Of a stretch of 38,460 nucleotides of DNA, positions 11,217 to 20,982 are shown piece by piece; position 1 is the first letter of the stretch, and each line of letters starts with the position of its first letter. A model generated the notes under the pieces. The model did not search any database, was not told the origin of the DNA, and saw nothing but the letters and a program-made list of their open reading frames with translations. Source of the DNA: Occultella glacieicola (GTDB lineage: Bacteria; Actinomycetota; Actinomycetes; Actinomycetales; Beutenbergiaceae). Location: assembly GCF_004353825.1 (NCBI RefSeq), contig NZ_SMNA01000011.1, positions 124,001 through 162,460 of the forward strand, given 5' to 3'. A program made the translations under genes and the position numbers.

Positions 11217-11289
11217 TGGAGCTAAGGGGATTCGAACCCCTGACCTCTTCCATGCCATGGAAGCGCGCTACCAACTGCGCCATAGCCCC
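11217..11289 (-). tRNA. tRNA-Ala (anticodon GGC)
   Basis: GGGGCTATGGCGCAGTTGGTAGCGCG-CTTCC-ATGGCAT-GGAAG-AGGTCAGGGGTTCGAATCCCCTTAGCTCCA; G3:U70 alanine determinant; CCA not fully encoded. A -10-like TAAACT at 11316-11321 overlaps the upstream stop codon. Confidence 0.98.
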
Positions 11290-17339: not shown

Positions 17340-17480
17340 GGGTGTTCACGCCTTCACGGTTCGAGCGGGGGCCTGCCCGGTACACCCGCGCGGCACGTGT
17401 CACGCGTGCCGGCCAGCGGGCCGTCGAACAGGAGGTGACGCCGAGGGGCGGGACGCCCGGGGCATCGGATGAGGGTCGGC

Positions 17481-17585
17481 TCAGGCCTGGACCGGCATCG
17501 CCGACATCGCCGGCATCGGACAACAGCACATCGGACGGGACACCCGCAGCGGCGTCGTCGTGAGTTCCCTGATGCTGATACCCAT
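17481..17585 (-). CDS. 34-aa Cys/Met-rich leader peptide candidate: MGISIRELTTTPLRVSRPMCCCPMPAMSAMPVQA
   Basis: Translated by hand (below the ORF-track cutoff); ATG 17585 preceded by AGAGGGAA; TGA 17483-17481; lies between the SAM-IV riboswitch and the LLM gene. Confidence 0.65.
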   Translation of the reverse strand: MGISIRELTTTPLRVSRPMCCCPMPAMSAMPVQA

Positions 17586-17619
17586 CGGTGGTGTTTCCCT
17601 CTACTCGGGCGCCTGCGGC

Positions 17620-17735
17620 GCCGTGCGCTTGCTCCGCGTCGAACGACCGGAGCCAGGTCGTCACCCGGGGCACCCCACCGCAGTTGGAGGGTTGCCGGTC
17701 AGCAAGCCGGGGCTGTGATGCTGACACTCAAGACC
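17620..17735 (-). ncRNA. SAM-IV riboswitch
   Basis: Minus strand GGTCTTGAGTGTCAGCATCACAGCCCCGGCTTGCTGACCGGCAACCCTCCAACTGCGGTGGGGTGCCCCGGGTGACGACC...GCAAGCGC follows the actinobacterial SAM-IV consensus as I recall it (GGTC..GAG, GCTG.CCGGCAACC, GACC, CAAGCG). Confidence 0.93.
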
Positions 17736-17744
17736 TTGGGCCCG

Positions 17745-17774
17745 AGTCTAGGAGAGCCTTGGATGACGTGTCAA
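17745..17774 (-). promoter_or_regulatory. SigmaA-type promoter for the riboswitch transcript
   Basis: TTGACA (17774-17769), 18-bp spacer, TAGACT (17750-17745); the predicted start lies just 5' of the aptamer. Confidence 0.8.
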
Positions 17775-17980
17775 CAAAACCGCGCACACGGCGTGCGCGC
17801 GCACGAGCCCGACATCCGGCCCCGCAGGCCGGGCAGGCTCGCAGGGCTGGACGCCCGTCTCGGCATTCGGGATTCCCGAGGCGTCCCCGAAGCGGCCCGG
17901 CGGGCGGCGGTACGTTCGGACCACGGGAGCACCAGCCATGGGCGCCCGGTCACCCAGATCGCCGAGCTCGGACGGGAACG

Positions 17981-18553
17981 ATGACCCTCACCCTCACCAC
18001 CCTGAGCGGCAATCCGCGCCGGGGTTCTCGCACCCTCGCGGTCGCCGAGGCCACCGCCGCCCGGATCACGGCCCTCCTCAACGGACGCGACGGCCTGATC
18101 GGCGCCGCGGGCCTCGACACTGCCATCGACGACCGTGTGATCGAGCTCGCCGACCTCGCCGGGCAACTGTTCGCCCCCGAGCACCCCGAGGCCGACGAGG
18201 CACTCGCCCGCGTCGCCGGATCCGACGTGCTCGTGGTCGCCACGCCCGTCTACAAGGCCAGCTACACCGGGCTGCTCAAGTCCTTCCTCGACCTCTACGG
18301 CGCGAACGGGCTACGCGGGGTCGTCGCCCTGCCCGTCGTGGTCAGCGGCAACCCGGCCCACCTGCTCTCCACCGACATCCACCTGCGCTCGCTGCTCGTC
18401 GAGCTCGGCGCGAGCGTCCCGACCCGTGGCCTCGGGCTGGTCGAGTCCCAGCTGGGCACCGTCGACGACGTGCTGGACGCCTGGTTCACCGATCACGGTG
18501 ACCTCCTGCACGGTGCAGTCACCGCCGGCGCCCGGGCGGGGGCAGCGGCATGA
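17981..18553 (+). CDS. NADPH-dependent FMN reductase (SsuE-like)
   Basis: SGNPRRGSRT, VVATPVYKASYTGLLKSFLD, LRSLLVELGA. Confidence 0.92.
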   Translation: MTLTLTTLSGNPRRGSRTLAVAEATAARITALLNGRDGLIGAAGLDTAIDDRVIELADLAGQLFAPEHPEADEALARVAGSDVLVVATPVYKASYTGLLKSFLDLYGANGLRGVVALPVVVSGNPAHLLSTDIHLRSLLVELGASVPTRGLGLVESQLGTVDDVLDAWFTDHGDLLHGAVTAGARAGAAA

Positions 18554-19113
18554 CCACCGAGACGCTGAGCACCCTCGAGCGCCTGCTCGCGGAGCAGGAC
18601 GAGCCCCAGCTGAATGCGGACGAGTACAAGCAGGTGTTCCGTCAGCACCCGGCCGGCGTGGCCGTGGTGACGTTCAACGGTCCCGGCACCGATGCCGCGG
18701 CCGCGCTGCCGGTCGGCTTCACGGCGACGTCGGTCATCTCGGTGTCCGCCGCTCCCCCGCTGCTCGCGTTCTCGATCGCCTCGACGTCCTCGTCGTGGCC
18801 CGCGCTGAGCCAGACCGGCACCGTGGTCGTGAACTTCCTGGATGGCCCAGCGGCGCACCTGTCCACCACGTTCGCCCGTAGCGGCATCGACCGGTTCGCC
18901 GACGCTCCCTGGCACCGGCTGACCACCGGTGAGCCGGCCCTCACCGAGGCCTGCGCCAGGGTCCGCGGCCGGGTCGTGCAGCGGATCCCGGCCGGGGACA
19001 GCTACCTGGTCACCCTGCGCGCGCTCAGCGCCGAGATCCCGCGGACCGGCTCACCGCTGGTCTACCACGACCGGACCTACCACCAGATCGGCGGGCACAG
19101 CCGGCTGGGCTGA
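18550..19113 (+). CDS. Flavin reductase family protein (HpaC/DszD-like split barrel)
   Basis: FRQHPAGVAVVT, GFTATSVISVS..PPL, PLVYHDR.Y; ATGA overlap. Confidence 0.92.
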   Translation: MTTETLSTLERLLAEQDEPQLNADEYKQVFRQHPAGVAVVTFNGPGTDAAAALPVGFTATSVISVSAAPPLLAFSIASTSSSWPALSQTGTVVVNFLDGPAAHLSTTFARSGIDRFADAPWHRLTTGEPALTEACARVRGRVVQRIPAGDSYLVTLRALSAEIPRTGSPLVYHDRTYHQIGGHSRLG

Positions 19114-19125
19114 GTCACGGCCGGC

Positions 19126-20982
19126 TCAGGACCAGTCCGGCAGGTAGGCCCTCGTGGCGGCGTCGATCGCCACCGAGTACGTCCAGTCGGTGCGCCGCGT
19201 GGAGCCCCAGGCCTGCCAGCCCTGCCGCTCGCTGTGCGCGAGGACCGTGACGCCGTCCGGCACCCAGGGCCCGGCGATCGGGGAGAAGAACGGGATCGCC
19301 CCCACGGCGCCGATGAAGGTCGCCCAGCGCCGGGCGATCTGACTGCGTTTCCACGGCCCGAGGACCACCATCACCCGGCGGTGCTGCAGGTAGTTCGCGA
19401 CCAGTTCGATCTCCCAGGCGAAGCCCTGCCGGACCTCCTTCGGGGTCGCACTCAGGATCACCGCTCGGGCCGTCTGTGCGTACCGGGCCACGTGCTGCTG
19501 CCACTCGTCGTTGCTGAAGCTGGCCCGGGCGGCGCCGATCGGGGCGATCCGGGCCCCGGGCGGCGCGATCGCGATGACCGGCCCGGACATCGACAGCTGC
19601 TGCACCAGCACCTCCTCGAACCGCACCTGCCGGAACAGGCTGAGCGCCCCGAGCAGGCCTCGTCGACGCAGCAGGCCCGGTAGCTTCAGCGAGTCCTCGT
19701 CGAAGCTGCGCAGGTACAGGTAGTGCGGCCGGGTGTCCTGCGCGAGAGCGTCCGCGACCGAGGCGGCGCGGATCCGCCGTCCGAACTCGTCCAGGGCCAC
19801 CAGGAGTGCGATGACGACGAGGAGCACGGGCACCAGCCAGACCTGAAGGTCTCCCGCGAACGCCCGGGCGATCGGGTACAGCGGGGCGGCGAGCGGCTCC
19901 CAGCGCCCCGAGAGCCCGTCAGCGGACGAGACCGGCCACCCGCCGGACGCCCCCGCGTACCAGTTCAGCAGCACGAAGATGACGAGCACCACCGGCAACA
20001 TCCCGTAGGCGATGGTGCTCAGGGCCATGCCCACCCCGCCCCGGGCACCGAGGCTGCCGAGTCGCGCCGGCCGCACGTCCTCCACCGGGTGCGGCGGCAG
20101 GAACCGGTACATCAGGGCGACGATCCCGACGAGCACCGCGAGCGCGACCAGGACGCCGATCGCGGCGCCGGTGTCGCGGGCGACGATCGCCTGCAGCTCG
20201 ACCAGTACGAGGAACCCGGCGAGGCCCCAGACGAACAGGCGGACCCGTCGCTTCCAACGTGCGGTCATCACCACCTGGGTGAGGTCGTGGTACCGGGGTG
20301 AGGTCGATCCCGACCGGTACCGCGGGCGGCGCAGGAAGGCGATCAGGCGGAACGGACCGACGAAGACGATCCAGACCAGCCACACGAAGACGATGGTCTG
20401 GATGAGCACGTCACTGACGTCGTAACGGGGCGACTCCACGTCGTCGTAGCCCTGCCCGGCCAGCGTGTCCTGCAGGTCGAGCACGTACGGGGCCAGTTGC
20501 CCGGCGCACGCGCGGGGGTCCTCGGGGCAGGGCATCCGCAGTTCCACGAGCGTCGTCGCGTCCGCCCCGCTCGCGATCCACTGCCACCTCAGCTCGGCGT
20601 CCGCCCCGTTCCAGCGGACCCGCTCGCGATCGTCGAGCACGGCGACCCCGGTGACCGGCCGGCCCGGGATCCCGCGCCACTCGGCCATCCCGATCGCCTC
20701 GTCGTCGTCGTCGCAGACGGCGTGCCACAGGGTCAGTTCCCCGCCGGCGCCGGGTCCCTGCCAGCGCCACTGCTGCGCGGTGCCGCAGCCGGGCGCGTCC
20801 TCGAGGCTCTCGTCGACGGACGAGGTGACCAGGAACCAGTCGTCGCCGGGGGTCCAGGGTGGGTCCCCGGCCGGCGCCGCGATGGCCGACGGCGTCGCGA
20901 AGGTCAGCAGGACGACGGTCACCAGGACGGTGGTCAGGGTGAGCAACGCGCGCCGGGTTCGGCGCCCGATGGGCGCCCTCAC
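19126..20982 (-). CDS. Multi-pass membrane protein: signal peptide, Cys-containing ectodomain, ~5 TM helices, C-terminal TIR-like domain
   Basis: GTGA overlap with the upstream stop; signal ending PSAIA|A; C-terminal YLYLRSFDED...EEVL...GPVIAI.PPG....GAAR....EWQQHV....ARAVILS.T....GFAWEIE....RVMVVL. The TIR assignment is pattern-based inference. Confidence 0.75.
   Translation of the reverse strand: MRAPIGRRTRRALLTLTTVLVTVVLLTFATPSAIAAPAGDPPWTPGDDWFLVTSSVDESLEDAPGCGTAQQWRWQGPGAGGELTLWHAVCDDDDEAIGMAEWRGIPGRPVTGVAVLDDRERVRWNGADAELRWQWIASGADATTLVELRMPCPEDPRACAGQLAPYVLDLQDTLAGQGYDDVESPRYDVSDVLIQTIVFVWLVWIVFVGPFRLIAFLRRPRYRSGSTSPRYHDLTQVVMTARWKRRVRLFVWGLAGFLVLVELQAIVARDTGAAIGVLVALAVLVGIVALMYRFLPPHPVEDVRPARLGSLGARGGVGMALSTIAYGMLPVVLVIFVLLNWYAGASGGWPVSSADGLSGRWEPLAAPLYPIARAFAGDLQVWLVPVLLVVIALLVALDEFGRRIRAASVADALAQDTRPHYLYLRSFDEDSLKLPGLLRRRGLLGALSLFRQVRFEEVLVQQLSMSGPVIAIAPPGARIAPIGAARASFSNDEWQQHVARYAQTARAVILSATPKEVRQGFAWEIELVANYLQHRRVMVVLGPWKRSQIARRWATFIGAVGAIPFFSPIAGPWVPDGVTVLAHSERQGWQAWGSTRRTDWTYSVAIDAATRAYLPDWS

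Follow-up and report, generated by a model that had tools for sequence, protein, structure and literature searches.

Riboswitches are usually pictured as devices in which one ligand drives one decision, and amino acid attenuators as free-standing leaders. The leader described here places both in series, and the arrangement is kept family-wide. It lies on the minus strand of a 38,460-nucleotide (nt) stretch of the Occultella glacieicola genome (contig NZ_SMNA01000011.1, positions 124,001 to 162,460), which we call the window and whose internal numbering is used below. A SAM-IV riboswitch for S-adenosylmethionine (SAM) is followed by a short open reading frame (sORF) rich in cysteine and methionine codons, a structured spacer RNA, and a gene for a luciferase-like flavin-dependent monooxygenase (LLM).

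Both halves of this leader have described relatives. SAM-IV was first listed as a motif of Actinobacteria (PMC1950547), and its structure has been solved by cryo-electron microscopy (PMC6890682). Mycobacteria have polycysteine attenuators encoded by leaderless sORFs (Canestrari et al., 10.1101/834739), and candidate cysteine leader peptides were proposed for Mycobacterium, Propionibacterium and Bifidobacterium (Seliverstov et al. 2005, PMC1262725). Riboswitch-controlled upstream open reading frames (uORFs) occur in Mycobacterium tuberculosis in the B12 leaders of metE and ppe2 (PMC11260477) and in the Mbox leader of pe20, where termination is Rho-dependent (PMC12810186). In addition, the expression platform of a Xanthomonas campestris SAM-I riboswitch also binds uncharged tRNAfMet (PMC7270179).

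The leader studied here combines two of these known kinds, a riboswitch-controlled uORF and a cysteine leader-peptide attenuator. It resembles the mycobacterial polycysteine sORFs in having a short frame with a 3' run of cysteine codons before a sulfur gene, with stalling at these codons as the proposed sensor. In contrast, the frame is led by a Shine-Dalgarno (SD) sequence, sits behind a riboswitch rather than leaderless at the transcript start, and is rich in methionine as well; the word 'riboswitch' does not occur in 10.1101/834739. The leaders of PMC1262725 share the cysteine codon runs near the stop codon and the lack of a terminator hairpin, and a tna-like attenuation by Rho was proposed for them, whereas they have neither an upstream riboswitch nor methionine codons, and no conserved structured spacer is described for them. 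In the M. tuberculosis cases, too, a translational aptamer platform controls a short frame that sets downstream expression, there with Rho termination within the leader. Their ligand classes differ, however, and those uORFs show no excess of codons for the pathway's amino acids (PMC11260477, PMC12810186), whereas the uORF examined here is a likely second sensor. The X. campestris leader likewise integrates SAM with methionine and tRNA status, but by direct RNA-tRNA binding instead of the ribosome stalling proposed here, and in a different aptamer class and phylum. Specific to the present family are three traits: methionine codons are used as well as cysteine codons, the target enzyme is sulfur-free, and the spacer is a new structured RNA. 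No description of a SAM riboswitch ahead of a cysteine/methionine leader frame was found in the full-text literature searched (main texts, with subscription journals mostly outside), so the statement of an initial annotation of this window that such a tandem is undescribed holds within that literature. Nor do the accessible portions of the SAM-IV papers searched mention leader frames between aptamer and gene.

That annotation, made from the sequence alone, had also read a promoter, a SAM-IV aptamer, an SD sequence, a 34-codon frame, a gap of about 140 nt and an LLM gene in this order on the minus strand. Each of these is present where it was placed:

17745..17774, minus strand: promoter-like site, sigma-70-like with 10 of 12 matches; -35 TTGACA (17774..17769), 18-nt spacer, -10 TAGACT (17750..17745)
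17620..17735, minus strand: SAM-IV riboswitch aptamer (RF00634), 102.7 bits (E 5.7e-18; gathering score 38)
17608..17622, minus strand: hairpin GGCGCC-GCA-GGCGCC directly 3' of the aptamer, recognized in the sequence and by comparison with a second SAM-IV copy (L001, below) and orthologues
17596..17602, minus strand: SD sequence AGAGGGA of the leader frame, 10 nt 5' of the ATG; orthologues have an AGAAGGA-type SD
17481..17585, minus strand: leader frame of 34 codons plus TGA, MGISIRELTTTPLRVSRPMCCCPMPAMSAMPVQA; ATG at 17585, 34 nt past the aptamer end
17493..17531, minus strand: cysteine/methionine-rich tract MCCCPMPAMSAMP, containing an in-frame 9-nt repeat, GATGCCGGC / GATGTCGGC
17474..17493, minus strand: small hairpin GGUC.CA.GGC-CUGA-GCC.GACC, whose loop contains the TGA stop codon
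16299..17339, minus strand: LLM gene, 346 amino acids, NtaA/DmoA/YtnJ group (Pfam Bac_luciferase); SD GAAGG at 17355..17351

The match to the SAM-IV covariance model is full length (model positions 1-116), as expected of a member of RF00634. The aptamer also has the setting of known SAM-IV riboswitches: it occupies the 5' end of a transcript with its own promoter, is linked to a sulfur-related gene, and is followed about 34 nt later by an SD-led start codon. It differs from them in that this start codon belongs to a 34-codon frame rich in cysteine and methionine, and the enzyme gene begins 141 nt beyond the stop codon of that frame, behind a structured spacer. TTGACA-N18-TAGACT is the sole site of its kind between 16800 and 18300 (mean of 0.0 in 50 shuffles). 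It ends 9 nt before the aptamer, which puts the predicted transcript start a few bases 5' of the aptamer and the start of the leader frame about 150 nt downstream of it. The promoter is kept in all 38 orthologous loci introduced below, with TTGAC[AT] at -36..-41 and TAnnnT at -13..-17 from the aptamer.

To place the leader frame in context, 61 genomes (that of O. glacieicola, 35 more from the same family and 25 from other families of the order) were searched with RF00634. This yielded 97 SAM-IV aptamers in 52 genomes, all of which were examined together with their flanks. The loci fall into a group in which a long open reading frame (ORF) starts roughly 24-48 nt after the aptamer and a group in which the first long ORF starts only 200-350 nt downstream. 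The second SAM-IV copy of O. glacieicola itself, L001 (contig C21:216069-216183, minus strand, 115.1 bits), serves as an internal comparison: the ATG of a 465-amino-acid ORF follows at 34 nt, and there is no leader frame. SAM-IV copies that directly precede a long gene likewise have a hairpin right after the aptamer. An LLM homologue, detected by tblastn with the LLM of the window, lies behind 38 of the 97 aptamers; related loci in Occultella, Ruania and Beutenbergiaceae encode proteins with 64-90% identity.

At every one of these 38 loci, a frame of 25-43 codons occupies the same place, in most cases behind an AGAAGGA-type SD and beginning 31-42 nt past the aptamer. As in the riboswitch-controlled uORFs already described, the translational platform of the aptamer addresses this conserved short frame and not the main gene (38/38 loci). 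Because the sORF starts at the position that the aptamer addresses in directly coupled copies, SAM likely decides whether ribosomes enter the leader.

The peptides were scored by a simple criterion: 15-50 codons, a start 0-60 nt after the aptamer, and at least two Cys, at least two Met and at least five of both together among the last 15 residues. This was satisfied at 35 of the 38 LLM loci and at none of the 59 other SAM-IV loci, in 34 of 36 family genomes, so that the two computational checks suggested by the initial annotation, an Infernal search with the SAM-IV model and a search for the frame in relatives, both came out in its favor. The three failing LLM loci (L073, L016 and L081) have weaker, Cys-containing ORFs in the same place. 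Within the O. glacieicola genome, only 11 of 14,415 SD-led ORF starts of 15-50 codons pass the composition test. They correspond to five distinct stop sites, one of them that of the leader frame; the others are on contigs C11, C4, C18 and C19. The C11 candidate was dropped, as a long open coding region encloses it.

Conservation of the sORF concerns its frame and the composition of its tail. The N-terminal two thirds cannot be aligned and vary in length, and the C-terminal 8-12 codons differ between genera in sequence but not in kind (VMCCCSMSA, CMCMCLCVTA, MMMCMCMGMAA, MCGTPMACMCMR). Across the 38 sORFs, the last 15 residues include 136 Cys and 107 Met among 570 (43%), against 2 Cys and 9 Met among the remaining 508 (2%). 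Cys positions are kept while TGT and TGC swap between genera. Frame lengths of 25, 26, 27, 28, 29, 30, 31, 32, 33, 34, 38 and 43 codons are found between the SD-ATG and a nearly invariant GCC-TGA, which means that many length changes have all kept the frame. One such change is visible in the window, where the 9-nt repeat has lengthened the tail in frame relative to three genomes of the same genus, from MCCCSMSVQA to MCCCPMPAMSAMPVQA. No consensus RNA structure was recovered across the sORF (0 pairs by RNAalifold in 35 of the 38 leaders, with L033, L073 and L081 left out). This combination of composition and frame conservation points to selection on translation of the sORF and on the Cys and Met codons just before its stop.

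By its sequence, the tail pattern is the signature of an amino acid-sensing leader peptide. The leader frame of the window has three consecutive Cys codons (MCCC) and four internal Met codons, and, like the described cysteine leaders, it is a short ORF that has its consecutive Cys codons close to the 3' end, lies upstream of a sulfur-metabolism gene and is kept in relatives. Its Cys/Met tract is therefore predicted to be a ribosome-stalling sensor. One genome (G035) has two copies of the whole unit on different contigs (L026 and L057), each with aptamer, identical sORF MNQARQYVPVSSTATCVMCCCSMSA, spacer domain and LLM gene.

The enzyme behind the leader fits a response to sulfur starvation. The LLM is a short, divergent member of its group (89.5 bits to TIGR03860, under the cut-off of 279.7), and its closest solved relatives are Bacillus subtilis YtnJ/MoxC, nitrilotriacetate monooxygenase NtaA, dimethyl-sulfide monooxygenase DmoA and DszA, with E values of 7.6e-10 to 1.9e-5 over partial coverage. 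Several of these are C-S bond-cleaving, sulfur-scavenging enzymes. The protein encoded in the window contains no Cys and one internal Met, and among the 12,406 residues of the 38 orthologues there are just 3 Cys and 30 internal Met, most of the proteins having exactly zero and one. Such a nearly sulfur-free sequence is what would be expected of a protein made in sulfur starvation, and it could be translated while leader ribosomes stall.

The LLM gene begins 141 nt past the sORF stop codon, so some link from leader translation to LLM expression is required. In the tna leader (TnaC) of Escherichia coli, a ribosome is held near the end of the leader frame beside C-rich RNA, which is thought to keep Rho off. 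TnaC stalls at the stop codon through free tryptophan and the nascent peptide, whereas in the leader examined here the proposed cause is uncharged tRNA at Cys or Met codons, with entry gated by SAM. An analogous Rho-blocking principle, already cited for the leaders of PMC1262725, may operate at this locus. In outline, SAM would gate translation of the leader, and ribosome stalling on Cys/Met codons would relieve a premature, probably Rho-dependent termination and turn the LLM gene on; we give this scheme about an even chance of being correct.

The nucleotide composition following the stop codon is compatible with this scheme:

17406..17480, minus strand: candidate loading region for Rho, a C-rich, G-poor stretch (37 C, 21 G) that immediately follows the stop codon

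The C/G ratio over these 75 nt is 1.76 in the window, a value attained by 1.5% of 75-nt windows in the genome, and ranges from 1.25 to 2.0 (mean 1.62) in all 38 leaders, compared to 1.15 for LLM coding sequence. The genome has a rho gene (638 bits). No site resembling an intrinsic terminator was found on the minus strand between 17481 and 17340, and in this the leader differs from classical attenuators of the trp/his type.

The proposed switch would have three states. When SAM is high, the ribosome binding site (RBS) of the sORF would be closed, no ribosome would enter the leader, and Rho would load and keep the gene off. When SAM is low and charged Cys- and Met-tRNAs are ample, ribosomes would reach the stop codon and leave, exposing the C-rich RNA, and transcription would end early. 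When SAM is low and Cys or Met is scarce, ribosomes would stall one to nine codons before the stop. A ribosome held there would shield the hairpin at the stop codon together with the first part of the C-rich stretch, so that RNA polymerase reads on into the LLM gene, whose product requires no Cys and just one internal Met. Wired in series, the two sensors would act as an AND gate for true sulfur starvation.

The initial annotation had suggested a two-input sensor reading both SAM and the charging of Cys/Met-tRNA. Conservation of the sORF, its place at the riboswitch read-out position and the fit of a sulfur-poor enzyme strengthen this idea; the two-input logic itself we infer. If it is true, this leader is an RNA-only AND gate by which a sulfur-scavenging, sulfur-free enzyme is made only at low SAM and low charged Cys/Met-tRNA, and it is a rare case in which Met codons, beyond Cys, serve as leader-peptide sensors. 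It also offers an answer to the question of how a translational riboswitch can control a gene that starts some 280 nt downstream in a GC-rich actinobacterium, where intrinsic terminators are few.

Several observations weigh against this mechanism. The case for Rho consists of base composition, the absence of a terminator-like site and analogy. Invariant loops and junctions in the spacer (GUGACA, CCUCGGGC and GCCCCUUCGG) exceed what a plain rut site explains. TGT accounts for 72 of the 138 sORF Cys codons (52%), compared to 18.6% in mechanically called long ORFs (a set that includes spurious frames), and this excess is unexplained. In the literature searched, we found no earlier leader peptide that uses Met codons to sense starvation. 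For the first step, a minimum free energy fold of the aptamer and sORF start region, in which pseudoknots are outside the model, is uninformative on closure of the RBS.

In addition, comparative evidence for an alternative pairing under the control of a stalled ribosome was not found. Unmasking of the LLM start was assessed by partition-function folds of the 38 leaders in which 30 nt were forced single-stranded, either over the first Cys codon of the tail or over the stop codon. The mean unpaired probability of the LLM SD and start was 0.449 in free RNA, 0.442 with the ribosome at Cys and 0.471 at the stop, no consistent effect; in each of these states, the A-rich SD region is about 45% unpaired. 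Pairing between the Cys tract and the LLM SD is predicted at -19.4 kcal/mol, against -23.5 kcal/mol for control windows, and falls in the best tenth at one of 38 loci. Long duplexes between tail and spacer are GC-rich but have inconsistent targets (34/38 loci). An anti-structure between the post-stop GCCGAAC and the 5' arm of spacer helix B (see below) pairs 62% of alignment cells compared to 56% when slid by one column, with no better covariation. All of these duplex and accessibility figures are thermodynamic predictions that leave out pseudoknots. The tna-like scheme is what remains after the alternatives tested, and it is our best guess by analogy rather than a result.

A separate candidate pairing, between the spacer loop GUGACAC and the UGU-rich Cys codons, would explain the TGT excess. 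It is not supported: the mean predicted energy is -7.84 kcal/mol compared to -7.24 kcal/mol for coding windows and lies in the best tenth at only 7 of 30 loci (the 8 of 38 loci without the loop motif were left unscored).

Among the rival explanations, the one that survives best holds that the sORF is a coupling device only. A translational SAM-IV riboswitch may need a translated frame to reach a distant gene through Rho polarity, in which case the Cys and Met codons would sense nothing and would serve some need at the level of RNA or peptide. There is precedent in the B12 and Mbox leaders, where riboswitch-controlled uORFs are documented to modulate downstream genes (PMC11260477, PMC12810186), the sORF is located exactly at the riboswitch read-out position, and the TGT enrichment hints at a constraint on nucleotides. 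On the other hand, the nucleotide sequences of the tails differ between lineages while their in-frame Cys/Met composition is kept, and the enrichment is confined to the last 15 codons, as in amino acid attenuators. A uORF that ends 141 nt before the gene would not by itself shield the C-rich spacer from Rho, and with a sulfur-free target enzyme a sulfur amino acid sensor is the economical reading. We consider this explanation unlikely, though with a small but real share of our confidence.

A different challenge comes from the spacer, where the initial annotation saw a few hairpins. It is instead a conserved structured domain of about 130 nt, a new conserved RNA structure, with these components:

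17362..17492, minus strand: conserved structured platform domain (covariance model R1); matched in the genome itself at C2:141362-141492
17466..17437, minus strand: helix A, GAUGCC..GGGCG-loop-CGCCC..GGCAUC
17432..17427 with 17377..17372, minus strand: long-range helix B
17410..17392, minus strand: helix C, GGCACG-CGTGACA-CGTGCC, which covaries in relatives and has an invariant GUGACA loop

The spacer alignment comprises 30 of the 38 leaders, the eight most divergent (L074, L049, L045, L073, L016, L048, L058 and L081) being left out, and contains strongly conserved blocks 3' of the stop codon. For the 23 leaders without a large insertion, RNAalifold gives 27 pairs, of which 16 show compensatory changes, and includes a small helix at the stop codon; the GUGACA loop is identical in 22 of these 23 rows. 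In the R1 alignment 91.6% of cells are paired, compared to 35-52% after the 3' partners had been shifted out of register by 1-3 columns. At 0.487, the covariation score compares with at most 0.109 after sliding and was reached in none of 500 shuffles; the shuffles ignore relatedness, which the slid controls keep. Both hairpins that had been named, GGCACG...CGTGCC and GTCGGC...GCCGAC, exist. The first is part of covarying helix C, but the GTCGGC of the second is an alternative 5' arm supplied by the 9-nt repeat and not the conserved form. In relatives, the stop-codon hairpin takes the form UCGGC-CUGA-GCCGA, within which GGCCUGA is nearly invariant and alignment columns G46, C47 and C48 are invariant.

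The R1 model matches 24 sites in 23 of the 61 genomes, every one directly behind a SAM-IV aptamer and sORF. Under stricter filters, no extra copies were found in the 61 genomes and none in the 25 genomes of other families; 23 of the 24 matches are training sequences. Seven loci from the same family (L074, L049, L045, L016, L048, L058 and L073) lack the GUGACA loop motif. Six of them, which belong to sister genera, were aligned (L073 was left out) over a region reaching from 30 nt 5' to 135 nt 3' of the sORF stop, and the spacer they have in common is a different one. It has an invariant 12-base-pair (bp) helix, without covariation, in which the last sORF codons and stop (AUGCGCUGACGGCGG) pair with CYGCCGUCGUGC about 80 nt downstream. 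The Cys tract of these six loci also folds into a hairpin with compensatory changes at four pairs.

Covarying stems with invariant loops and junctions are typical of RNAs that bind ligands or proteins, so the spacer could do some sensing of its own, either as a second aptamer that recognizes a sulfur-related metabolite or by binding a protein or an uncharged tRNA. The leader would then have three inputs, or the spacer would be the main switch of the LLM gene. Rfam holds no model that matches it, SAM-IV being the only match on the leader (E up to 10 in the window, up to 1 in eight orthologues). The tRNAfMet-binding platform of a SAM riboswitch (PMC7270179) lends the idea some plausibility. Against it, no ligand is suggested by the tests made, the domain is restricted to one family and to sites behind the sORF (24 of 24 matches; 0 of 25 other-family genomes), and sister genera have a different spacer instead. 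This restriction and replacement fit an expression platform better than a free-standing aptamer, and we regard a sensing spacer as improbable. Within the SAM-gated stalling scheme, the spacer may still have a function of its own, for example in pausing, in binding a factor or ligand, or through a pseudoknot invisible to the folds used.

One correlation between spacer and aptamer was noted. In 16 of the 38 LLM-linked aptamers and in 3 of the 59 others, the 5' strand of aptamer helix P2 (positions 9-14) has the sequence GUGUCA, which could pair with the spacer loop UGACAC. The seven same-family loci without the loop motif have GUACCA, GUAUCA, GCUCCA or GUGCCA in this strand. Either phylogenetic hitch-hiking or a long-range contact could produce this pattern. 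Direct pairing of the loop with the P2 strand was rejected as a candidate, since only 4 bp are universal and the pattern tracks phylogeny, which leaves an unexplained correlation.

The mycobacterial polycysteine mechanism invoked by the initial annotation is translational: the Cys tract pairs with the downstream SD region, and a stalled ribosome frees the SD. It is experimentally supported for Ms5788A in Mycobacterium smegmatis (10.1101/834739), and the general layout is alike, a sulfur gene being preceded by an sORF whose 3' end carries a Cys run. The parallel does not extend to the details. The defining pairing of Cys tract with SD is not found in the folds, the predicted duplex being weaker than controls and the predicted accessibility of the SD unchanged by ribosome position, and the sORF is SD-led, not leaderless. 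We judge this mechanism very improbable at the LLM locus.

The sORF might instead encode a functional product, such as a metal- or redox-active Cys/Met peptide, the precursor of a modified peptide or a sulfur store, co-expressed with the monooxygenase. The C-terminus is indeed conserved in being rich in Cys and Met, and luciferase-like oxidoreductases can tailor peptides. Yet the N-terminal two thirds are conserved in neither sequence nor length, the stop codon is embedded in a conserved RNA structure, and a sulfur-rich peptide made at low SAM would waste sulfur. Since the neighboring genes are proA and flavin reductases and no peptide-modifying genes are nearby, the storage or modified-peptide alternative raised in the annotation seems hardly credible. 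Finally, stop codons are rare in GC-rich DNA and frames of some 30 codons are often open by chance, but a chance frame is refuted by conservation (11 of 14,415 genomic starts pass, as do 35 of 38 orthologous leaders but none of the 59 that follow other SAM-IV aptamers).

Short frames with Cys or Met codons behind SAM-IV are not limited to Beutenbergiaceae. A wider sample of 151 genomes at the level of the class (58 with SAM-IV), joined with the non-LLM loci of the first survey, provided 131 further aptamers with at least 200 nt downstream. The hexamer CGAATG occurs 15-100 nt after the aptamer at 16 of these (L104, L105, L106, L109, L113, L115, L118, L121, L126, L127, L128, L150, L025, L027, L004 and L017), compared to 6 among 1,470 control stretches. 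At 14 of the 16 loci the hexamer encodes Arg-Met within a uORF; thirteen of these uORFs have 6-17 codons and one has 20 (for example, MSKRMR, MSQRMR, MSCQRMPRR, MRSCCRMHRPAEV, MDDMCCCRMQQVTGA and MKVDVMCRCRMTGVAGA). In the CGAATG loci inspected, an O-acetylhomoserine-sulfhydrylase-like (metY-like) gene (WSFETKQIHAGQ) follows 100-200 nt later.

Five loci (L067; L133, whose aptamer is on the plus strand; L139; L143; and L165) have leaders of 26-56 codons that share the motif RRH(V/I)DL...(S/A)S..C.C, MQHSTRCHDDQHVRGSADPLLTSRRHVDLVRVASCTCR being one of them. That a peptide motif is kept, and not just a composition, hints at an element for nascent-peptide arrest. In a low-GC genome (G141), the SAM-IV aptamer of locus L158 is followed within the first 70 nt by ATG CAT TGT TGT TGC (MHCCCTSIYT) and, about 100 nt later, by a metY-like gene, which indicates that a uORF with a Cys run is not a by-product of high GC content. 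A crude count over 37 heuristically picked short first ORFs, a set that includes false picks, gives 5.1% Met and 4.1% Cys, compared to 1.5% and 3.3% in 754 control short ORFs.

Related mini-frames thus stand between SAM-IV and metY in other actinomycete families, and the principle may be general. We would venture, tentatively and with less than even confidence, that actinomycete SAM-IV riboswitches commonly gate tiny frames with Cys/Met codons rather than their targets directly, forming AND gates, and that the Beutenbergiaceae leader is the most elaborate of these, with its long Cys/Met tail, an enzyme depleted of sulfur amino acids, and a new structured spacer outside Rfam that converts stalling into read-through or adds a third input.

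Two genes next to the LLM gene are transcribed divergently from it:

17981..18553, plus strand: SsuE-like NADPH-dependent FMN reductase (PF03358, 1.6e-23; TIGR03567, 87.6 bits, below its cut-off)
18550..19113, plus strand: flavin reductase (PF01613, 2.7e-32)

These reductases likely supply flavin to the monooxygenase.

Upstream of the aptamer, conservation of the -35 region extends well beyond the hexamer. The block GTTGACACGTCATCC (17762..17776, minus strand, in the window), which has an inverted repeat TGAC..GTCA inside it, is also kept in L032-L034, L085, L079, L080, L064, L069 and others, across two genera whose flanks have diverged. By sequence, it may be an operator for a protein regulator that overlaps the promoter. 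Adjoining the -35 hexamer, at 17780..17806 (minus strand), is a GC-rich inverted repeat followed by TTTTGTT. It gives rise to three overlapping terminator-like calls on the minus strand, and no minus-strand gene ends just upstream; it may be a terminator, an operator or an insulator toward the divergent FMN reductase gene.

Two further features of the window were recorded on the minus strand. An ORF of 618 amino acids at 19126..20982 has hydrophobic stretches and no Pfam match at E up to 0.01, and a tRNA gene at 11217..11289 scores 68 bits to RF00005.

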